NCBI GenBank assembly: GCA_040398005.1
Contig: JBBAUX010000005.1
Location: 108,246-135,686 of the forward strand
Source: Opitutales bacterium
GTDB lineage: Bacteria > Verrucomicrobiota > Verrucomicrobiia > Opitutales > UBA953
Length of the DNA: 27,441 nt
Direction of reading: 5' to 3'
Below are positions 15,719 to 27,441 of this stretch, one piece after another; the first letter of the stretch is position 1, and each line of letters begins with the position of its first letter. A model generated the notes under the pieces. It saw only the letters and a program-made list of their open reading frames with translations. It did no database searches and had not been told where the DNA came from. A program made the position numbers and the translations under genes.

Positions 15719-17536
15719 TTACTTTGTGTTGGCTTTAATCCATTCAGCTTCACTGACATCGCCACTCTTGTCGGCGTCATAACGAACGAAACTCTTCTCG
15801 GTTTTGGCAGGATCTTTTTTGCGGACCGCTAAGAATTCTTCTTTGGTAACTTTGCCGTCTTTGTTTACGTCAGCTTTCTTGTAATCAGCAGAGATTTGTT
15901 CTGGGGTTTTAACTTCAGCAGGTACGGTTGTTGCAGGTGCGGTTGTTGTTCCACTGGCATTGACGCCACCAAACATGGTATCTTCGTCTTTACTCTTGGC
16001 TGTAGCGTCTGCGATTTTTACTTTCTTAGTTTTGCCAAAGACAACCGCATTAGGATTGGGTGCAGTGATGGCTGCAGGTAAGAATTTTGAAAGACGTTCA
16101 ATCACTGCTTTGTTTTCAGGCTTATTAGCTAAATTAACAGGCTCGGTCGGTGCATTTACCTCGTCGTATAATTCAGTATCATAAATCTTATTATCTTCGA
16201 TGCCGCGCCAGAGGATTAAGCGCCAGCGTTCGTCGCGGATACTGTAACCCATGACGTTACATTTGCCACCTTTGATGAAGCCATCTTTAACTGCTGTAGC
16301 TTCTTTGTTTGCTTTAGGATATTGGCTAATGGCTACTTCTTTAACCTTCACAGTCTGATTTTCTAAGACTGGGCGGAGTGATATGCCGTCCACATCAGGT
16401 TTAGGTAATCCGCAGAGATCAGCGAGGGTTGGATACACGTCCACAAATTCGACCAGGGAGTCGGACTTACCGTTCGCATTCTTCATATTGGGATAGCTAA
16501 CGATAAGGGGTACGCGAGTATCGGCTTCGAAGTTAGTATGTTTGCCCCACTCTTGGTGGTCGCCGAGTTTCCAGCCGTGATCGCCCCAGAGAACGATGAC
16601 AGTGCTATCAGCGAGGCCTTCTTTTTCTAAGGCATCAAGAACGATACCCAGATTAGCATCGGTGTAGCTGACGGCTGCGTAGTAACCATGACGCATGTCT
16701 TTGGTTAATTTTTCAGGCAGAGCAGTGAAGCTTTGTTTTTTCTCTTTAGGAGGAATGTTGGTGTAGGAGTGTAACTCACCGCTATCGCTATCGTTCGCAT
16801 AGAGCGGGGATCCTTCAGGGTATTTACTGCTGGTATCAGGTAGTTTATCGGCATCATACATATCCCAATATTTCTTAGGGGAAACGAAGGGGAGGTGAGG
16901 TTTGGAGAAACCAACTGCCAGGAAGAACGGGGAATCCTTTTTCTTTAATTCACCCAGAGTTTTTGCAGCGAGACGTGCAGTTTTTCCGTCAGTGTAAAAA
17001 TCATCGGGTACATCGCCGGCTTCGAATGCGGGACCTTTAATTTTTTCTGCACCGCTCTTTCGGGAGTTTTCAAGAGCTTGGCGATTTTCTGGCTTCGCAT
17101 AGATTTCAGCTTCAGGAGTTCCCCAGGGTACTGACCAACCCACAGCATCATCCTGACCACCGTGAAAAATTTTACCCATACCTTGAGAGAAGTATCCGTT
17201 CTTGATGAAGAACTGTCCGAGGGAGACCGCGTTGGGGAGGGCAGTACGGAAGTGTGTTTCTAAATCCCAAACGCGAGTGGCGTCCGGACGTTTACCCGTC
17301 ATGATGGATGCTCGTGATGGAGCACAAACGGCTTGTTGGCAGTAGGCGCGATTAAAAACCATGCCGCGTTTAGCGAGACGATCAAAGTTAGGGGTCTTGA
17401 TGGCAGTATTACCGTAACAACTTAATTCAGGACGAAGGTCATCAATGGCAATAAACAGCACATTCATTTTTTTCTCCTGAGCACAAAGCTGGGCGCTGAG
17501 TAGTCCGAGGGTTATTAAGGTAAGTAACTTTTTCAT
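15719..17536 (-). CDS. Secreted Cys-type sulfatase (iduronate-2-sulfatase-like) with C-terminal EF-hand pair
   Basis: Signal peptide MKKLLTLITLGLLSAQLCA (ATG 17536), NVLFIAIDDLRP, CAPSRASIMTG (CxPxR), GKIFH, KPHLPF, GDHGWKLG..WGKH. The tail carries DVNKDGKVTKEE and DADKSGDVSEAE. Confidence 0.93.
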   Translation of the reverse strand: MKKLLTLITLGLLSAQLCAQEKKMNVLFIAIDDLRPELSCYGNTAIKTPNFDRLAKRGMVFNRAYCQQAVCAPSRASIMTGKRPDATRVWDLETHFRTALPNAVSLGQFFIKNGYFSQGMGKIFHGGQDDAVGWSVPWGTPEAEIYAKPENRQALENSRKSGAEKIKGPAFEAGDVPDDFYTDGKTARLAAKTLGELKKKDSPFFLAVGFSKPHLPFVSPKKYWDMYDADKLPDTSSKYPEGSPLYANDSDSGELHSYTNIPPKEKKQSFTALPEKLTKDMRHGYYAAVSYTDANLGIVLDALEKEGLADSTVIVLWGDHGWKLGDHQEWGKHTNFEADTRVPLIVSYPNMKNANGKSDSLVEFVDVYPTLADLCGLPKPDVDGISLRPVLENQTVKVKEVAISQYPKANKEATAVKDGFIKGGKCNVMGYSIRDERWRLILWRGIEDNKIYDTELYDEVNAPTEPVNLANKPENKAVIERLSKFLPAAITAPNPNAVVFGKTKKVKIADATAKSKDEDTMFGGVNASGTTTAPATTVPAEVKTPEQISADYKKADVNKDGKVTKEEFLAVRKKDPAKTEKSFVRYDADKSGDVSEAEWIKANTK

Positions 17537-17669
17537 TATTAAGAGTATCGTTAGGTTAGGAAACACCTCCAAGGCTAACAAGTTCCAAAATCGTGAAATT
17601 GGCTTAAATAGAGCAAATTTTCGGAATCTTGCTATTTCGATTTAGGTAACCTACCGATGGAGCAACTGC

Positions 17670-19709
17670 ATGTCGGAATCTCGCTTAAAGTTTAAATTAG
17701 AGGCCAAAGCCTCCGGCTCCAGAGCGCGAGCGGCGACATTCCATACCCTCCATAATGAGGTTAAAACTCCTCTGTTTATGCCCGTGGGCACGCAGGCGAC
17801 GGTTAAAGCACAAACCTTCGAAACATTACACGACTCGGGATCGCAAATTCTCTTAGCGAATACTTATCACTTATTACTGCGACCAGGTCCCGAGGTTTTT
17901 CAAAAGTTTGGTGGTATTCACTCCTTCATGAATTGGAGTAAATCGGTACTCACGGATTCGGGTGGCTACCAAATTTTTTCACTTCCGCATTCTCGTTCAA
18001 TCGGCGAAGACGGCGCGGAATTCAGAAGTTACGTGGATGGTAAAAAAATTCTGCTGAGTCCGGAAGTGAGTATCGCCACGCAAATGGCCATCGGCAGTGA
18101 TATTATGATGGTGCTGGATCAGTGCATTCCGTCGACCGCGGACAAGGCCACCGCAAAACGTGCTTTAGAAATTACCCAACGCTGGGCGGTGCGTAGTTTG
18201 AAAGCTCGCGGAGAATCTCTGCAGTCGATGTTCGGTATCGTACAAGGTGCGCTTTATCCCGAACTGCGAAAGCAAAGTGCGGATGGACTAACCCAATTAC
18301 CCTTCGATGGATTTGCGATTGGCGGTCTCGCCGTCGGCGAAGAAAAACAAGAACGCGAAGATACGTGTGAAATCGCCGCCGCACTTTTACCCGAAGATAA
18401 ACCACGCTATCTCATGGGCGTGGGAACGCCGCTCGATTTACTTGAGGCCGTGCATCGCGGGGTGGATATGTTTGACTGCATTATCCCCAATAAAGTCGCC
18501 CAATTTGGCACTGCTTTCACCTCCAAGGGCTTACTTCAATTACGTCGATCGGTTTACAAATTCTCGGAGGAGAAAATCGATGCCTCTTGTGCCTGTCCGG
18601 TCTGCCAAAAATATTCTCGTGGTTATTTACATCACCTAACCAAGACGCGTGAACCCTTAGGTTGGACGCTGCTCGGTCAGCACAACATCGCTTTTTATCA
18701 TCAGATGATGCGGGAGATTCGTCAGAGTATTTTAGAAGATAGATTTTTAGAGTACTACAATAGTCGTCGAACTATTCTTGCCGTTGAAGATGCGGAGAAT
18801 CCGGCCAGCCCTCCGAAGGTCGGCAAGGAACGTCGCCCACGCATACTCGGCGATTATACGGTGCATATCGCCCCCGCGGGCTTTGCGAGTATTAAGCAAG
18901 TATCATCGGGTGAAATCATGCATTCGCATACGCCTCCGATGGACGAAGCGAAATCACTTTACGTCGATCAAGCGGAGCTACTGAAGCACTTACGCTTACC
19001 TGAAGGAAAATCTGCACAGGATGTTTCTGAACTGATTATTTGGGATGTGGGACTCGGTGCAGCCACGAATGCGATGGCGGCGGTGCAGTGTTATGAGAAA
19101 CTCGCGAGTGAAGGTGAAGTGCGTCGAATGAAAATCATCAGCTTCGAAAATAATCTCGATGCGCTCCGTTTAGCCCTCACCCATAAATCTAAATTTGAGT
19201 ATCTTCGTCACAGTGCTCCCGATGCCATTCTAGCCCGTAAACATTGGGTATCTCGACAGTTCTCAGGCTTAAGCTGGGAATTACACGAAGGCGATTTTTG
19301 GGAAATGGCTCCAAAGGTTTCGGAAAAACCTGACATCATTTTCTACGATTTCTTTTCGCATAAGACCGATACGCATGGGTGGCATCCCGATGCGTTTAAA
19401 AAATTATTTGCGATGGTGAAATCAGATAAGTCGCTCGCTCTCTTTACCTACTCGGCTTCGACCGCAGTGCGGGCAAGTTTACTCGCGGCTGGTTTCAATG
19501 TGGCTGCAGGTGTGGCCACTGGCGTAAAAAGTGAAACCACCATTGCTTTAATCCATCCCGAGAAAGCGTTGAGCCGTTATGCTTTACTTGATCGTGAGTG
19601 GTTGAGTAAGTGGGAGCGGTCCAATGCGAAATTTCCTGCGATGCTTGCCGTGTCTGATCAGCCCAGTTTCGAGCAAGCAATTCGGAGTCATTCGCAGTTT
19701 AAATCGTAA
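17670..19709 (+). CDS. tgt: tRNA-guanine(34) transglycosylase fused to a C-terminal MnmC/MnmD-type SAM methyltransferase
   Basis: aa ~1-370: TPLFMPVGT, LANTYHL, DSGGYQ, LDQC, FGIVQG, GGLAVGE, PRYLMGVG, DMFDC, Zn site CACPVC...H. aa ~395-679: GEIMHS, WDVGLGAATN, IISFE, EGDF, DIIFYDFFS, TYSASTAVR..L..AGF.V, K.ETTIA. One uninterrupted frame. Confidence 0.92.
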   Translation: MSESRLKFKLEAKASGSRARAATFHTLHNEVKTPLFMPVGTQATVKAQTFETLHDSGSQILLANTYHLLLRPGPEVFQKFGGIHSFMNWSKSVLTDSGGYQIFSLPHSRSIGEDGAEFRSYVDGKKILLSPEVSIATQMAIGSDIMMVLDQCIPSTADKATAKRALEITQRWAVRSLKARGESLQSMFGIVQGALYPELRKQSADGLTQLPFDGFAIGGLAVGEEKQEREDTCEIAAALLPEDKPRYLMGVGTPLDLLEAVHRGVDMFDCIIPNKVAQFGTAFTSKGLLQLRRSVYKFSEEKIDASCACPVCQKYSRGYLHHLTKTREPLGWTLLGQHNIAFYHQMMREIRQSILEDRFLEYYNSRRTILAVEDAENPASPPKVGKERRPRILGDYTVHIAPAGFASIKQVSSGEIMHSHTPPMDEAKSLYVDQAELLKHLRLPEGKSAQDVSELIIWDVGLGAATNAMAAVQCYEKLASEGEVRRMKIISFENNLDALRLALTHKSKFEYLRHSAPDAILARKHWVSRQFSGLSWELHEGDFWEMAPKVSEKPDIIFYDFFSHKTDTHGWHPDAFKKLFAMVKSDKSLALFTYSASTAVRASLLAAGFNVAAGVATGVKSETTIALIHPEKALSRYALLDREWLSKWERSNAKFPAMLAVSDQPSFEQAIRSHSQFKS

Positions 19710-20535: not shown

Positions 20536-21000
20536 ATGAAAACCCTATCCTCCATTGTCGCTACCCTACTTGGTTTGATGTTCGTGGTCTTTGGCCTGAA
20601 CTTCTTCCTTCAATTCATTGCGATTCCATCGCCGGCAGAGGGCACGCCCGCGGCAGCGTTTCTCGGTGCGATGATTGGCAGTGGCTATTTCAAGTTGGTA
20701 AAAGTTTTAGAAATTCTCGGGGGTGTTCTGCTTTTGTTACCACGTATACGTAATTGGGGCTTGGTGATTATCGGTGCGATTGTGGTGAACATTGCTAGTT
20801 TTCATTTATTCTTCTTCGGTGGCATCAAGGATCCGATTGTGATCTTCGCGATCGCTGCGGTACTCTTTCTTGCCTATGTTGGCCGTCGCGGTTTCTGCTG
20901 TCTGGCCTGTTGTGGTTCCGGTTGCTGCGCTAAGGACGGGGACAGCTGCTGCTCGACCTCGAGTGGTTCCTCTTCCTGCTGCTCCAGCGATAAGAAGTAA
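20536..21000 (+). CDS. DoxX-family membrane protein with Cys-rich C-terminal tail
   Basis: LLGLMFVVFGLNFF...GY..LVKVLEILGGVLLL...VNI..FH DoxX-like pattern. The tail has five CC pairs. Confidence 0.85.
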   Translation: MKTLSSIVATLLGLMFVVFGLNFFLQFIAIPSPAEGTPAAAFLGAMIGSGYFKLVKVLEILGGVLLLLPRIRNWGLVIIGAIVVNIASFHLFFFGGIKDPIVIFAIAAVLFLAYVGRRGFCCLACCGSGCCAKDGDSCCSTSSGSSSCCSSDKK

Positions 21001-21060: not shown

Positions 21061-21402
21061 ATCGAATTACTTGATTTTAAGCTAATTTGAATCTTGGCGG
21101 CTTGCGAGTTGGCTGGCCTGACCCGTCTTCTTTGTCTAAAATTAGGCAATTATTTATTATAATTACGAGTATGAATTATAAAATTTATGTAAAAATAAGG
21201 CTTAAAATCGTTGTGCGGGCAGGGCGTTTTAGTTGATTTTACGAGAAATCCATTTTAGCCATTAAAATAAGGACAAAAATCACCATTTTACACTTTATTT
21301 AATCAGTGTTTTACCCCCCCTAAATTTTACACAAATTTTATCATTTCTCACTTGTGCACAAACATAAGATTGGTACATTTTGAACACCCCAAAAAAAGTT
21401 TT

Positions 21403-24400
21403 ATGAAAAACCCTCCCTCTAAGATTGTATCAAATTCACAACGCGTTCGTGCCAACGCGGTGTGGCTGATGAACGCCGCCTCACTCGCCATTGCGATCGG
21501 CGCCGCTAGTTCAAGCGACAACGTTTCTATTGTGACCAAGGCTAAGGCGGTAGCGTACACGTGGGGTGCTGGAGGCAGTGATTCTGGTATACAGACGACT
21601 GCTAATTGGTCTCCCAATGACGGATCCAACATGAATTGGTCGAGTTCCTCATCTGCTACAAACAACACTTTTCTATTCGGAACTGCGGGCACATCCAAAA
21701 TGACTGTGAGTGTCAAAAACAATGGTAATACGATTTTTGGCCAAGTTACTTTCGACGCAGTTGGCAATACGAATAGTGGTAGTGGTTGGGTCGTTAACGA
21801 TCCGGGAACAGGTGGAAGTTTCCAACTTGCAGGTAACACTCCTACTACCAGTACCGGCTCAACATTACTGAACAATTATACGGCAGGAAATTTAACATTT
21901 AATGTTCAGGTTATTCAATCAACATCTAACAATACATGGACAACAGTTGCTGGCGCCAACACGATTTTTAATAGGGCTGTGTATGCTACGAGTTCTAGTT
22001 CGGTGCGATATCTCACCTTGAATGGTGCTGGTAATTTTACTTTCAACAGTGGTATCAAGAATTCGTATATTACGAATAGTTCTCAAACTCTTACCACTAG
22101 TTCTACATTAACCATCTCTAACACTGGTACTACGACGATAACTGGTGCGATGGATCTTCGTGGTCAGGTCGAATTTAGGACCCTAGGTGGTACTGTGGTT
22201 CTAGACGGTGATAATTCTACTGTTGGTGCAAGTCTTACACGTGTCCCTGGAACGGATACTACTTATGCCTTCCGTTTTACTCAGGGTAATGTAAAACTTA
22301 ATAATGCTCTGGCTCTAGGCAATCAGGATTTAGTCCTCGGTAGAACTTCTGGAACGAGTTCATTCTTTGAACTAGGTGTTTATACAAATGCAGCAATCAC
22401 GGTAGCCAATAATTTCACATTAGGTGCATCTACTGGTTCAGTTTCTGTTCTTAATGGTTACACACTCGGCGGTAGTTCAGCGAACACTTCCATTTACTCG
22501 GGAACTGTTCTCTTAAATAAAGATGCTAGATTTACTCAGGTTACAGGTGGAACATTAACCTTTTCGAATGCGATAACTTCTAGCGGTTCAAGAAACCTTA
22601 CCTTGGATGGTGAAGGTAATATCAATATCACCAATTCAATTGGATCAGGTATTATTCCTATTGTCGGAAGCACTTCAACCTCATCGAACCGCGTCGTTAC
22701 CCTCTCTGGGTCGAATGCATTTACGACTGGTGTGACCATTAACTCAGGTGTCTTAGCCTTGGGTAGTTCTGGTGCCTTGAATTCAACAGTGGGTTCCGAA
22801 AACGCGATCACTTGGGGTGCAAGTACATCAAGCGGTACTTTAAGATTAAACGGAAACTCCGTTGTCGTTAAGTCCTTAACTACCAATGCAACAGCTGGTA
22901 CTCCTATCATTGAGAACGCAAATGCTACAGGTTCTATTTTAACAATCGGTAATTCGACCAATGCAGACAGCACCTTCGCAGGTGTCATGCGCGATGGTAC
23001 TGGTGCTGGCACTCTCGGTGTCAATAAAGTAGGTACAGGTATATTAACGCTTTCCGGTGCTAACACCTACACTGGTGCGACGACCATCAGCGCAGGTACT
23101 TTGGCTTTAACTGGATCTTTAACAGGTTCTGCAGTGACTGTCGGAGCTAGTGGTACTTTAAAAGGTACTGGTAGTACGAATGGTTCACTCAATATCAGCG
23201 GTACTGTTAACCCAGGTTCTGCTGGTGTGGGTACATTAACCACGGGAGCAACCGATTTAAAACAAGGTGGTACATTAAATATTCAATTCTTCAGTGGTTC
23301 AGGCACAGCCGGTTCCACCGGTTGGGACTTACTTTCTACTGGTGCTTTAACCACAACCGCGACCTCTGGAAATAAGTTTAACATTAACTTAGTTTCGATT
23401 ACCACATTGGGAGCAGACACCACGGGTGCTGCATCAGTGTTCAGTAACTCCTCCGACCAAACATTTGAAATTATTCGTGCAAGTTCTTTAGCGACCGCTT
23501 TTGACGCTTCACTCTTCAACTTATCTACCGTCGGATTCACTAATAGTTTAGGCGGCGGATCTTGGTCACTTACCAGTTCTAACAACAGCATCTATGCTAA
23601 TTTTGCTAAATTTGTTGCGGGTACCATTTCGTATTGGAGCGCTGGAACCTGGGGCGTTACAGCTTCCGGAACCGGTGGTGCTGGATCATGGGACAATGCT
23701 TCTGGATCTTGGGATGCAACAGGCGGTAAGACTGCCGTATTCGCTGGTTCTTCTGGCGATGCTGTAACCGTTGGTACAGTAACAGCGAAGAAGGGTATTA
23801 CCTTCTCCACCACTGGATACACTCTATCAAGCGGCTCCATTGCCTTAGCCGATACTTCTGGTCTCAACACTGTGACCGTAGACTCCGGTACAGCTACCAT
23901 TGCCTCGGCCTTAACGGGTTCTGGTGGTTTCACAAAAGCAGGTTTTGGTACCTTAACCTTATCGGGTGATAATAATTCTTTAAGTGGCGGAATGACGATC
24001 GGACTTGGTACTTTGAAAGTCGGTAGCGCTACCGCGTTAGGTGCAAGTGCAAGCAACGTTTCTATTACGAGTGGTGCAGTTCTCGACTTAAATGGAACAA
24101 CTTACACCAACGCTAACGCACTATCCATTGCTGGTACTGGTGCCGTAATCAACTCTAGCAACACTGCTGCAAGTTATAATGGTAACGTTACTCTCACAGC
24201 TACCTCTAGTATCGTTTCGACTGGTGCTATCACCCTGAGTGGTACAACCAATCTTAGTGGTTTCGGACTTACCCTGACAACAGGAGCTGGAGATATCACA
24301 TTATCGAATAACATCTCGGGTTCCGGTGCTTTAACCATTAGCCCAGCGGGTGCAGGTAATGTTACGCTTAGCGGCTCTTCGATCAACAATACGGGTGCCA

Positions 24401-27400
24401 TCTCCGTCAATTCAGTTACTGGTGGAGGTAATACTACTATCTCTGGTAACATCGGTAGTTCGGTCACTAACCTTGCATTAGGTACAGTTAATACCACTGG
24501 TTCTGATCGCACAATTACCTTGAGCGGTACAAATACTTACACCGGTACGACCACCATTAATGCTGGTACTGTTAAACTCGGAAGTCCATCTGCATTTAGT
24601 ACCAGCATCGTTACTGCTAACGGCTATGGTTCGGGTGTCGCAATCGATCTTAACGGACAAACTATTGCTAATACCCTAAAAGTTCGCGGCACTGGTATTA
24701 GTGCTACGTCTGGTGTTATCACTAACACATCTTCTACCGCTGCAAAGGTAACAGGAAACGTTGAATTTAACGGAGATTCTACAATCGTGGCTACCGCTGG
24801 TGATATTACCTTGGGTTTAACTAATCCTGACACAGGTGCTTTGATATCGGGTTCACTTAAAACAGCTAGTGCAACCAATAGAACAATCACTCTTGCTGGT
24901 ACTAGTTCAGGTGGTATTACCAATATTTACGTAAAAACTGGCGTACTTCAAACCAATGCTGTGGGATCGGGATACATTGCCTTAATCGTCGGTACCAGCG
25001 GTTCCGATAAAGTTAAAGTAACTCTAGACGGTACACAGGTACTTCAAACCAACGGAAATATTAAAATCCAGGGTGGTACGCTCGCGTTGGCTACATCCTC
25101 TACACTATCCTCTTCCGGTATGTCTTTGAATGCCGGTGGATCCTCGGCTGATAATAGTACTTTATTGCTTACAGCTGGTAACAATTACACCTTCGCTTCA
25201 CTTGGTAACGGAGGTAACTTAACCTTCGACACCACTGACTCTACAGGTAATGCAAGTATTACCTTCACGGCGGGTGGTAATGCTACTACCAATGTCTCCT
25301 ATGGACAAACTGGCAATGCTGCCTCCAAAATCTTCAGCGTAAATCGTGGCGTATCACTCATTGTGGGTTCCTCAGGATCATCCACATTCTTTGACTTAGC
25401 TGGTTCTAGCGCTGTTGCTGGTACTAACAGAACATTGAAATTGGATGGTGCTGGTACTTACACTTTCAATTCCGTTATTCGTGATACAAACGTCGTCGGC
25501 GTTACAGGCGGTATCAATAAAACCGGCGCAGGTAACGTAGTTTTAAATGCCGCCAATACATATACTGGTGGTACTATTGTTGGTGCTGGTACCCTGAAGG
25601 TTGGCAATGCAACCGCGCTGGGTGCGGATGCTTCCGCTGTTACAGTATCAGCGGGTGCTACCCTGGACTTAAATGGTACCACGATGACTGGCACTAATGC
25701 CCTTACCTTATCTGGTACAGCTACGAACGCTGGAGCATCTGCCGCAACCTATCACGGTTCACTGACCCTCGGTGCAAATACGGCCACATTGACTGCCGAC
25801 GCTAACAATCTCACATTTGATAGCAGTTCTGACGTCACTGGTGCCTTCACGTTAACACTTAATGGTGCTAGTAACGGTTCACTCTCGGGTGCATTAAAAA
25901 ATAGCACTGGTGGATTAAATAAATCCGGAGCCGGTAATTGGACAATAAGTGGAACCAACGCTACCTATACCGGTGTCACCAACATCACTGGTGGTACACT
26001 TACAATGGGTGCCAGCAACGTAATCGGTTCAGGCGATATTACCATCAACGGTGGTACCTTGGCTATCGGTGCGAACTCCGACACAGTGGGAGCCGTCACT
26101 CTAACGGACGGTACAATTTCGGGTTCATCCGGGGTTCTCACATCTTCAGCAGATTTAGCCGCTTCAGCCGGTACAATCAGTGCTAAAATCGGTGGTACTA
26201 AAGGTCTAACCAAGACAGGAAATGGATTACTGACACTTTCAGGTCTAAGTACAAACACGGGTGTTACGACCATCAACGGTGGTACAGTCTCCGTCTCTTC
26301 TATCGGCAATGGTGGTGTTGCTGGTAATCTTGGAGCAGCAAGCACTGGCAGTGCTAATATAATTATTGATGGTGGTACTTTAAAATACACGGGTGCTGGC
26401 GAAACATCCGATCGTAAAATCAAAGCTGGCACTGCATTGACGATTGATGCCTCAGGTACTGGTGCCCTAGTCCTTTCCAACGATCCATACAGCACAGTTA
26501 CTAAGCTCGGTGCATTCGTAAATACTAATACAAATTCTGTCTGGACGCTTACGGGTACTAATACCGATGACAATACTTATCACGCAAGATTGGTTGATAA
26601 CGGCACAGGTGTTACAAGTTTAGTTAAATCTGGCACTGGTACTTGGGTAATTACTGGGGACATCAGTGATTCCGCTACCGTTACCAATCCATTTACGGGT
26701 GGTACCACAATCAGTGGTGGTAAATTGAAAGCAACTACTGCGGATATTAGAGGTAACATTGTTAATAACAGCGTTTTTGAATTCACTAATGGTTCTGCTC
26801 TGCCTGGATCCTACACCAGTGTAATTTCTGGCAGTGGTTTACTGAATAAGAGCGGTGCAGGTGCGGTTACGCTCACCGGTGACAACACTTACACGGGTGT
26901 TACTAATATTAAATCTGGTTCACTCGTTCTCGGTTCTAATACCGGTAAGATTTCTGGATCATCCGCGATTAATGTTTTCAAGGATGCCACCCTGAAGTCG
27001 ACCAACACAACAGACTCAATTCTACAGGCCTCAGCGATCGTCTTAAACAGCGGTGCGATTGTTGATTTAACTGCTGGTAACTTAACTGCCACAAGTCTGA
27101 CGGTCAATGCCCTCAGCGGTGCTGATGTGACCAAGATCAACTTCGGTATTAATAAAGGTCTATCGCTTACTAATCTCACCTTAACGGGTAACCTCGCTGT
27201 TGATTTACTGGGTACTCCTTCTGGTATCGGTACTTACGATGTCTTAACCTGGAGTGGTACTAAATCAGGATCTGGAACGGTCAATCTCCTGACTACAAAT
27301 ACTTCCGATTGGGTTTACTCGCTTATCAGCTCTGAACCTGGCAAATACCAAATCAAAGTTGCTGTTGCATTCGTTAATGGTGGTGATCTCACGGGTGGAA

Positions 27401-27441
27401 CTGTCACAGTTCCAAGCGGCTCAACCGTGGGTGCTGTCTCT
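21403..27441 (+). CDS. Giant Gly/Thr/Ser/Asn-rich secreted beta-helical protein with autotransporter-associated beta-strand (PATR) repeats; >2013 aa, 3' end outside window
   Basis: ATG 21403 (MKNPPSKIVSNSQRV...). The segments I translated are stop-free, and the ORF track lists no closed ORF in this frame, implying it is open to the window end. K.G.G.L.L.G.N.YTG.T.I..GTL repeats occur at ~22700, 23026, 23935, ~24515, 25519, 25921, 26212, 26626 and 26848. Confidence 0.93.
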   Translation, partial: MKNPPSKIVSNSQRVRANAVWLMNAASLAIAIGAASSSDNVSIVTKAKAVAYTWGAGGSDSGIQTTANWSPNDGSNMNWSSSSSATNNTFLFGTAGTSKMTVSVKNNGNTIFGQVTFDAVGNTNSGSGWVVNDPGTGGSFQLAGNTPTTSTGSTLLNNYTAGNLTFNVQVIQSTSNNTWTTVAGANTIFNRAVYATSSSSVRYLTLNGAGNFTFNSGIKNSYITNSSQTLTTSSTLTISNTGTTTITGAMDLRGQVEFRTLGGTVVLDGDNSTVGASLTRVPGTDTTYAFRFTQGNVKLNNALALGNQDLVLGRTSGTSSFFELGVYTNAAITVANNFTLGASTGSVSVLNGYTLGGSSANTSIYSGTVLLNKDARFTQVTGGTLTFSNAITSSGSRNLTLDGEGNINITNSIGSGIIPIVGSTSTSSNRVVTLSGSNAFTTGVTINSGVLALGSSGALNSTVGSENAITWGASTSSGTLRLNGNSVVVKSLTTNATAGTPIIENANATGSILTIGNSTNADSTFAGVMRDGTGAGTLGVNKVGTGILTLSGANTYTGATTISAGTLALTGSLTGSAVTVGASGTLKGTGSTNGSLNISGTVNPGSAGVGTLTTGATDLKQGGTLNIQFFSGSGTAGSTGWDLLSTGALTTTATSGNKFNINLVSITTLGADTTGAASVFSNSSDQTFEIIRASSLATAFDASLFNLSTVGFTNSLGGGSWSLTSSNNSIYANFAKFVAGTISYWSAGTWGVTASGTGGAGSWDNASGSWDATGGKTAVFAGSSGDAVTVGTVTAKKGITFSTTGYTLSSGSIALADTSGLNTVTVDSGTATIASALTGSGGFTKAGFGTLTLSGDNNSLSGGMTIGLGTLKVGSATALGASASNVSITSGAVLDLNGTTYTNANALSIAGTGAVINSSNTAASYNGNVTLTATSSIVSTGAITLSGTTNLSGFGLTLTTGAGDITLSNNISGSGALTISPAGAGNVTLSGSSINNTGAISVNSVTGGGNTTISGNIGSSVTNLALGTVNTTGSDRTITLSGTNTYTGTTTINAGTVKLGSPSAFSTSIVTANGYGSGVAIDLNGQTIANTLKVRGTGISATSGVITNTSSTAAKVTGNVEFNGDSTIVATAGDITLGLTNPDTGALISGSLKTASATNRTITLAGTSSGGITNIYVKTGVLQTNAVGSGYIALIVGTSGSDKVKVTLDGTQVLQTNGNIKIQGGTLALATSSTLSSSGMSLNAGGSSADNSTLLLTAGNNYTFASLGNGGNLTFDTTDSTGNASITFTAGGNATTNVSYGQTGNAASKIFSVNRGVSLIVGSSGSSTFFDLAGSSAVAGTNRTLKLDGAGTYTFNSVIRDTNVVGVTGGINKTGAGNVVLNAANTYTGGTIVGAGTLKVGNATALGADASAVTVSAGATLDLNGTTMTGTNALTLSGTATNAGASAATYHGSLTLGANTATLTADANNLTFDSSSDVTGAFTLTLNGASNGSLSGALKNSTGGLNKSGAGNWTISGTNATYTGVTNITGGTLTMGASNVIGSGDITINGGTLAIGANSDTVGAVTLTDGTISGSSGVLTSSADLAASAGTISAKIGGTKGLTKTGNGLLTLSGLSTNTGVTTINGGTVSVSSIGNGGVAGNLGAASTGSANIIIDGGTLKYTGAGETSDRKIKAGTALTIDASGTGALVLSNDPYSTVTKLGAFVNTNTNSVWTLTGTNTDDNTYHARLVDNGTGVTSLVKSGTGTWVITGDISDSATVTNPFTGGTTISGGKLKATTADIRGNIVNNSVFEFTNGSALPGSYTSVISGSGLLNKSGAGAVTLTGDNTYTGVTNIKSGSLVLGSNTGKISGSSAINVFKDATLKSTNTTDSILQASAIVLNSGAIVDLTAGNLTATSLTVNALSGADVTKINFGINKGLSLTNLTLTGNLAVDLLGTPSGIGTYDVLTWSGTKSGSGTVNLLTTNTSDWVYSLISSEPGKYQIKVAVAFVNGGDLTGGTVTVPSGSTVGAVS

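Follow-up and report, generated by a model that had tools for sequence, protein, structure and literature searches.

What does a tRNA-guanine transglycosylase (Tgt) do when it carries a methyltransferase on the same chain? The question is raised by a 27,441-nucleotide stretch of DNA from an Opitutales bacterium (assembly GCA_040398005.1, contig JBBAUX010000005.1, positions 108,246 to 135,686 of the forward strand; hereafter the window), in which a single frame encoding 679 amino acids joins a complete Tgt to a methyltransferase resembling MnmC2. The original prediction was that this fusion inserts 7-aminomethyl-7-deazaguanine (preQ1) into tRNA and N-methylates it, giving a terminal alternative to queuosine. 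We found that the fusion as an object is real, widespread and already catalogued in print, in a 2023 preprint. New here is the position of its Tgt domain, which sequence comparison places in a separate clade, distinct from the housekeeping enzyme. The leading hypothesis for its function, to which we give close to an even chance, is that an accessory, horizontally spread Tgt-methyltransferase may insert preQ1 and then N-methylate it.

A widespread fusion of two domains

The frame and its position were exactly as originally described (Table 1), and both domains scored above their cut-offs in the hidden Markov model check that had been proposed. Pfam TGT (PF01702) spans residues 18-366 (E 5.7e-141; 470 bits against a cut-off of 26.3), and Methyltransf_30 (PF05430) spans residues 530-626 (E 2.1e-12; 47.5 bits against a Pfam gathering cut-off of 22). 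Among the NCBIfam models, the Tgt equivalog TIGR00430 scored 443.3 bits (cut-off 306.75). The MnmC2 model NF033855 aligned residues 414-625 with model positions 7-205 of 209, but its score of 62.4 bits is below the equivalog-domain cut-off of 136. The Tgt motifs of the window protein are TDSGGYQ (containing D96), LDQC (D150, C152), IVQG, GGLAVGE, DMFDC (D269) and CACPVC followed by H338, and those of the methyltransferase are D459-x-G-x-G, SFE493, D560-F-F562-S and TY594S. In a full-length structure model each domain is confident, with a predicted template-modelling score (pTM) of 0.59 for the whole and predicted local distance difference test (pLDDT) values below 50 at residues 384-387. A rigid two-domain architecture with facing active sites was dropped because of this pTM and the low-confidence linker; in the model the two domains look tethered by a flexible linker rather than locked together.

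Could the fusion be an artefact of sequencing or assembly, or a recent frameshift joining two genes? We found both Pfam domains in 118 of the 120 best relatives in a collection of 5.8 billion proteins. With the methyltransferase domain as query, 582 relatives were found across species genomes. Among the best 80, from which locus classes were assigned, 71 loci encode fusions of more than 640 residues and five encode fusions cut by a contig end, the others being three standalone methyltransferases and one locus too cut to classify. The domain junction is bridged without indels by contigs of four other runs from three studies, and some of the fusion loci lie on complete chromosomes or in the cultured Chthoniobacter flavus Ellin428. 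The artefact reading, which the original prediction had named as a possible refutation, is itself refuted by the two-domain relatives, the full-length loci and the independent contigs across the junction, and we regard it as virtually impossible. One further candidate, a 646-residue frame with a Tgt match in genome G033, was rejected as a long spurious high-GC frame.

By the labels in their record titles, from which all taxon and phylum names of hosts in this text are taken, the hosts are Verrucomicrobiota (many of them Chthoniobacterales), Acidobacteriota and Bdellovibrionota. The fusion is sparse in the window's order, where five of 201 sampled genomes have it, including all three of the window's genus. 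Public records call the fusions only 'tRNA guanosine(34) transglycosylase Tgt' or 'queuine tRNA-ribosyltransferase', and such naming hides both the second domain and the presence of another, ordinary tgt in the genome. In the available part of the preprint (bioRxiv 10.1101/2023.12.21.572861), a single sentence names 'MnmC2 fusions with TGT (COG0343, PF01702)' and no function is proposed; we presume that these proteins belong to the same clade as the window fusion.

An additional Tgt with its own residue signature

The original prediction took the fusion for the organism's Tgt. We found instead that it is an extra, distinct paralogue, and we refer to the fused form as F-type and to the standalone ordinary enzyme as S-type. 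In the window's genome a second tgt, of the ordinary kind, lies at G000:C2:174476-175552, and an ordinary tgt accompanies the fusion in all five fusion genomes of the window's order and in 37 of 39 fusion genomes elsewhere, where G330 and G332 show the fused copy alone. The same is true of G415, a genome of the same order as G358, which likewise shows only an F-type tgt. In a tree of Tgt domains built from 76 F-type and 34 co-resident S-type sequences (quick method, midpoint root, with the truncated loci L047, L057, L067, L077 and L083 left out), a single branch separates the two types, with a Shimodaira-Hasegawa-like approximate likelihood ratio (SH-aLRT) support of 100 and a length of 1.25. 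The S-types cluster by phylum. The F-types of Acidobacteriota and Bdellovibrionota branch from within the verrucomicrobial ones, an arrangement that suggests horizontal spread. The F-type and S-type Tgt of the window's genome share 43% identity; between the window Tgt domain and the F-types of Acidobacteriota and Bdellovibrionota, identity is 64-72%.

Residues of the Tgt domain are given here in Zymomonas mobilis numbering (D102 to His349, with E157, M240, R286, R289 and N290). The window domain aligns to Z. mobilis Tgt across residues 5-365, and its pocket residues match that preQ1-type enzyme residue for residue. D102, D156, C158, Q203, G229, G230, L231, A232, G234, E235, M260, D280, Cys318, Cys320 and His349 are each present in 76 of 76 F-type sequences and V233 in 74, and the third zinc cysteine (C312 in the window protein) is invariant in an alignment of 42 rows. 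The claim that the catalytic aspartates, the zinc site and the preQ1-pocket residues (DQC, GGLAVGE) are intact thus holds across the clade (74-76 of 76). Such conservation is what an active preQ1-type enzyme would show. The aspartate named as forming the covalent intermediate in Escherichia coli is Asp264, in the part available of PMC13416341.

The original prediction missed a change close to the nucleophile, where the F-type protein of the window reads PNKVAQFG in place of the invariant PTR..R.G of ordinary Tgt. R286 and R289 are arginine in 34 of 34 S-types, which span three phyla, and in Z. mobilis. In the 76 F-types, R286 is replaced by Q (65), K (8), A (2) or S (1), and R289 by Q (70) or K (6); the window equivalents are K275 and Q278. 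N290 is R in 66 of the 76, E157 is Q or H in all of them, and M240 is R in all of them. The two arginines would contact the RNA around positions 34-35 through the backbone and U35, a role that the literature searched did not confirm. The accessible part of PMC5395182 puts Arg286 in helix alpha-B, near the ribose-34 and phosphate-35 pockets.

Variation was also seen among ordinary Tgt proteins. The S-type of the window's genome (G000:C2:174476-175552; L001:1468-2610) and those of L028, L029 and L030, from three relatives in the same order, are without two or all three of the CxCxxC cysteines, with for example LDNYTC at this place, and keep the catalytic aspartates. Of the 34 S-types, the remaining 30 mostly retain the zinc cysteines; in the F-type none is lost. 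At L032 (G033:C111) the single Tgt of the genome has the altered pocket loop GGCLGSD instead of GGLAVGE and adjoins a 246-residue multi-pass membrane frame, by appearance a putative queuosine-precursor transporter.

The methyltransferase domain and its possible substrate

The MnmC2-like order of motifs that had been read from the C-terminal domain was borne out by the motifs themselves, the NF033855 alignment and the fold. A model of the domain (pLDDT 95.8) gave 3vyw, 2qy6, 3ps9 and 3awi as top Foldseek matches, the best being Aquifex MnmC2 3vyw (E 1.6e-15, template-modelling score 0.64), followed by E. coli and Yersinia MnmC. Sequence identity with these structures is 16-21%. D459, G461, G463, E493, D560 and Y594 are present in 42 of 42 fusions and F562 in 41. 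From the order of motifs rather than a residue-level alignment, we infer that Tyr594 would correspond to Tyr225 of Aquifex MnmC2. The available portion of PMC3527978 proposes that D-x-F and the aromatic residue of motif VI deprotonate and hold the aminomethyl amine.

The domain has motifs specific to its subfamily, SGE.MHS at the N-terminus and a W..RW.RS...HPQF extension at the C-terminus. A search of 1.84 billion representative proteins gave 1061 relatives at E<=1e-3. The best 150 of these comprise 14 full fusions, 20 proteins with a piece of Tgt and 116 without a Tgt part, which are about 250-310 residues long. So many Tgt-less relatives indicate that the methyltransferase is a subfamily of its own with standalone members. 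Fusion and standalone copy occur together in five genomes (L148, which is G365, Chthoniobacter flavus Ellin428, and L150-L153), the standalone copies scoring 220-252 bits against the subfamily profile; Ellin428, which is non-pathogenic, thus has all three genes: ordinary tgt, fusion and standalone methyltransferase. The PF05430 protein that G367 encodes separately is more canonical and has a poor score against the subfamily of the fused domain.

Is the fusion a substitute for queuosine synthesis? We found QueA in the window's genome and in 47 of 51 genomes. With QueA and an ordinary tgt both coexisting with the fusion, the fusion adds to queuosine rather than replacing it, and the part of the original prediction that made it a terminal alternative falls away. 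QueF was found in the window's genome and in 40 of 51 genomes, so that preQ1 is available there. G330 and G332, which show the F-type tgt alone, have QueA, QueF, mnmG and MnmM. Their retention of QueA with the F-type alone suggests that the F-type can probably serve ordinary tRNAs with GUN anticodons. As a separate observation, G341, G350 and G369 carry a second, weaker QueA-like gene (about 277-282 bits) beside the main queA.

The substrate of MnmC2, 5-aminomethyluridine (nm5U), is made by MnmE-MnmG, and MnmM is an alternative methyltransferase for the 2-thio form, nm5s2U. Among 42 genomes of the fusion set tested, mnmG was not found in three, including both Acidobacteriota-labelled ones. It was not found in four further fusion genomes so labelled either, so that all six are without it. 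For G351 and G358 the absence was upheld by a second, MnmG-specific model with all candidates scored. In the Acidobacteriota-labelled order of G358, a scan of 50 genomes, which in many of them scored just 20 of the initial candidates, found mnmG in none, and the MnmE N-domain turned up in one of the 50 (G415, near a contig end). This order apparently lacks xnm5U34 chemistry. Thirteen of its 50 genomes have the fusion, 12 of them together with an S-type tgt, and the methyltransferase motifs are intact in the four Acidobacteriota-labelled fusions of alignment A2. The fusion is independent of MnmEG in this order.

An MnmM-family gene was found in seven of 51 genomes, in a search whose controls matched only Bacillus subtilis and Lactococcus. 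The seven are the window's genome (C9:24703-25119), both congeners and four other hosts. The window's genome, G000, is 1.44 Mb and rated 93.9% complete, and its two congeners are 2.2-2.3 Mb. We rejected the absence of mnmG and mnmE from this genome as evidence, because the congeners have mnmG as well as mnmE, the assembly is small and MnmM is present; the two genes are probably unassembled.

The occurrence of the fusion in an order without MnmG and MnmE and its coexistence with MnmM make N-methylation of preQ1 the leading reading. The F-type Tgt domain would exchange a guanine in tRNA for preQ1, probably G34 of tRNAs with GUN anticodons or a subset of them. The tethered methyltransferase would then methylate the exocyclic aminomethyl nitrogen of the inserted base with S-adenosylmethionine (SAM), and the product would be 7-(methylaminomethyl)-7-deazaguanosine, made alongside the queuosine that the ordinary Tgt/QueA route supplies rather than in its place. 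Of these elements, the RNA target, the inserted base, the methylated atom and the order of the two steps are what we infer. N-methyl-preQ1 as a base is not new, the original prediction having been right that it is reported in phage DNA (PMC10516641, as far as available), and the enzyme responsible there, DpdM, is unrelated to the fused domain. In its fullest form we hold the proposal tentatively, somewhat short of an even chance. F-type fusions may make an undescribed tRNA nucleoside, N-methyl-preQ1 (7-methylaminomethyl-7-deazaguanosine) or a derivative, at some G34 or neighbouring sites in parallel to queuosine, the gene having moved among Verrucomicrobiota, Acidobacteriota and Bdellovibrionota as a modification module complete in one gene. 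If true, the 7-deazaguanine pathway would gain a new branch in tRNA, and the MnmC2 methyltransferase fold a new class of substrate, by way of a single transferable gene.

Several observations weigh against this proposal. Our literature search found N-methyl-preQ1 in the phage-DNA paper only and not in tRNA, and neither PMC10516641 nor bioRxiv 10.1101/2023.12.21.572861 reports it in tRNA in the parts available. QueF was not found in 11 of the 51 genomes. The mutual orientation of the domains is not confident in the model (pTM 0.59), which leaves a composite active site unsupported. In G369-G371, where the Tgt is of the ordinary type only, the subfamily is represented by standalone methyltransferases, from which it follows that the methyltransferase does not need the F-type Tgt. 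With R286 and R289 lost, the RNA target of the F-type may not be the canonical U33-G34-U35 loop. The gene absences rest on metagenome-assembled genomes without stated completeness. Finally, mnmG is present in 39 of the 42 genomes, and MnmM was found in only seven of 51, most hosts showing no other PF05430 or MnmM gene. With mnmG present and no other candidate methyltransferase found, a plain role on nm5U is possible in most hosts.

That role belongs to the alternative called simpler in the original prediction, namely a single chain holding two wobble enzymes that work independently. Its C-terminal domain would be the host's MnmC2/MnmD and convert nm5(s2)U34 to the methylaminomethyl form, mnm5(s2)U34, on Glu/Lys/Gln-type tRNAs, and the Tgt domain would carry out ordinary preQ1 insertion. 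It has on its side the PF05430 score over cut-off, the nearly full-length alignment to the MnmC2 model, the MnmC2 fold and catalytic motifs, the wide presence of mnmG (39 of 42, and four of four fusion genomes in the window's order), the lack of another PF05430 or MnmM gene in most hosts, and the preprint, which in its available part treats the protein as an MnmC2 fusion. Yet a fusion with intact motifs persists in G358's order, where 0 of 50 genomes have mnmG and one has the MnmE N-domain, the NCBIfam equivalog score is 62.4 against 136, MnmM is also present in the window's genome and genus, and G367 has its separate, more canonical PF05430 protein. The constant pairing with a second, divergent Tgt while the ordinary tgt stays is left unexplained. 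The intact fusion without MnmG or MnmE and the coexisting MnmM cost the two-enzyme alternative ground, and we consider it unlikely.

Less readily set aside, though still rather improbable in its three versions jointly, is that the same two chemistries act on different substrates. The F-type Tgt could act on a G without U33/U35 flanks, at another tRNA position or in a non-tRNA RNA; the methyltransferase could act on free preQ1 before insertion; or it could act on another amine, such as the secondary amine of epoxyqueuosine (oQ) or queuosine (Q). The replacement in all 76 F-types of two arginines shared by all 34 ordinary Tgts would fit, as would the changes of E157 to Q or H and M240 to R, the standalone methyltransferases without an F-type Tgt, the several genomes with both fusion and standalone copy, and the description of E. 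coli TGT as promiscuous for base substrates (PMC13416341, available part). The F-type pocket residues are nevertheless those of a preQ1 enzyme, G330 and G332 keep QueA with the F-type only, and the known MnmC2 enzymes, as PMC3527978 describes them in the part available, act on tRNA-bound nucleosides and not on free bases; nor does the sequence yield a target that could be named. A Tgt domain that is not catalytic at all, and that would either bind the anticodon loop on behalf of the methyltransferase or pair with ordinary Tgt as an accessory subunit, as QTRT2 does with QTRT1, we regard as very unlikely. The ordinary Tgt coexists in 37 of 39 genomes, two conserved arginines are lost, and eukaryotes have a heterodimeric Tgt with an accessory subunit (from PDB titles), but catalytic, pocket and zinc residues invariant over 76 sequences from three phyla are unexpected for a pure binding module, and G330, G332 and G415 show an F-type tgt only. 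N-methylation of inserted preQ1 stays the leading hypothesis among these.

Gene map and relation to known systems

Table 1. Positions in the window of the fusion gene and of its domains and motifs.
Feature	Position	Strand	Basis
Whole fusion gene	17670..19709	+	Single open frame, ATG start, 679 aa plus stop
F-type Tgt domain, residues 1-370	17670..18779	+	Pfam TGT, TIGR00430, alignment to Z. mobilis Tgt
Asp96 (Z. mobilis Asp102)	17955..17957	+	Alignment; 76/76 F-type sequences
GGLAVGE, residues 218-224, pocket loop for the preQ1 aminomethyl group	18321..18341	+	Corresponds to Z. mobilis 229-235
Asp269 (Z. mobilis Asp280, nucleophile)	18474..18476	+	Alignment; 76/76 F-type sequences
PNKVAQFG, residues 273-280, in place of PTR..R.G of ordinary Tgt	18486..18509	+	Comparison of F-type and S-type sequences
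CxCxxC zinc motif (C307, C309, C312)	18588..18605	+	Alignment, conservation
His338, fourth zinc ligand	18681-18683	+	76/76 F-type
Inter-domain linker, residues 371-393, about 20 residues	18780..18848	+	Low-confidence stretch in full-length model
MnmC2-like SAM-dependent amine N-methyltransferase domain (predicted) with family-specific C-terminal extension	18849..19706	+	PF05430, NF033855, structure model
SAM-binding motif I, D459-V-G-L-G463	19044..19058	+	D459, G461, G463 invariant in 42/42 fusions
Motif IV, D560-F-F562-S563 (D-x-F of MnmC2)	19347..19358	+	D560 42/42, F562 41/42; proposed catalytic-base role of Asp from PMC3527978 (part available)
Tyr594, aromatic residue of motif VI	19449..19451	+	42/42 fusions; proposed role from PMC3527978 (part available)

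The neighbours of the fusion in the window are housekeeping genes. No conserved operon partner emerged, since no neighbour family was common to more than six of 47 loci, and the neighbours of three standalone methyltransferases were uninformative. The window gave no Rfam match to a riboswitch or other RNA near the fusion, and the fusion gave no PADLOC match that would indicate a defence or DNA-modification context. Three other genes of the window were recorded in passing. A sulfatase (PF00884 and SGSH_C; 15719-17581, minus strand) has a C-terminal EF-hand pair and a low-complexity linker. A 154-residue membrane protein (20536-21000, plus strand) has no Pfam match and finishes in a tail rich in Cys, Ser and Gly (CCLACCGSGCCAKDGDSCCSTSSGSSSCCSS). 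A giant repeat protein of more than 2030 residues with PATR (autotransporter-associated) repeats (21352-27441, plus strand) is open at the window end, and G+C falls to 0.41-0.43 at the start of its gene.

Compared with bacterial Tgt of Z. mobilis and E. coli, the F-type is likewise a full-length TIM-barrel at equivalog level with the same aspartates, zinc site and preQ1 pocket. It differs in its fusion to a methyltransferase, in the loss of R286 and R289, in E157 to Q or H and M240 to R, and in its spread over three phyla, and it is not the single housekeeping tgt of its genome, being 43% identical to the host's own. With MnmC2/DUF752 (Aquifex 3vyw and E. coli MnmC) the fused domain shares the fold, SAM motif I, D-x-F and the motif VI aromatic residue, but identity is 16-21%, the equivalog score lies below cut-off and the N- and C-terminal motifs are its own. 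The co-occurrence with MnmE-MnmG expected of an MnmC2 is not seen in G358's order, whereas elsewhere mnmG is present in 39 of 42 genomes. The TGT-MnmC2 fusions of the preprint (bioRxiv 10.1101/2023.12.21.572861, available part) have the same architecture, PF01702 with an MnmC2 domain.

Two further systems are close in chemistry. The phage DpdA/DpdM pair, which makes mdPreQ1 in DNA, has the same base as the product proposed here and likewise combines a transglycosylase with a methyltransferase, according to the part available of PMC10516641. In that account DpdM is a DUF3109/YkgJ metal-cluster protein, whereas the fused methyltransferase is a Rossmann, MnmC2-like PF05430 domain; DpdA acts on DNA and its partner genes are clustered, whereas the fusion is without a PADLOC match or recurring neighbours. 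MnmM (YtqB, PF06962) is also a SAM-dependent methyltransferase of nm5s2U34, but its family is unrelated to the fused domain, and because the window's genome encodes a separate MnmM, the fused domain would be redundant there for the nm5s2U reaction.

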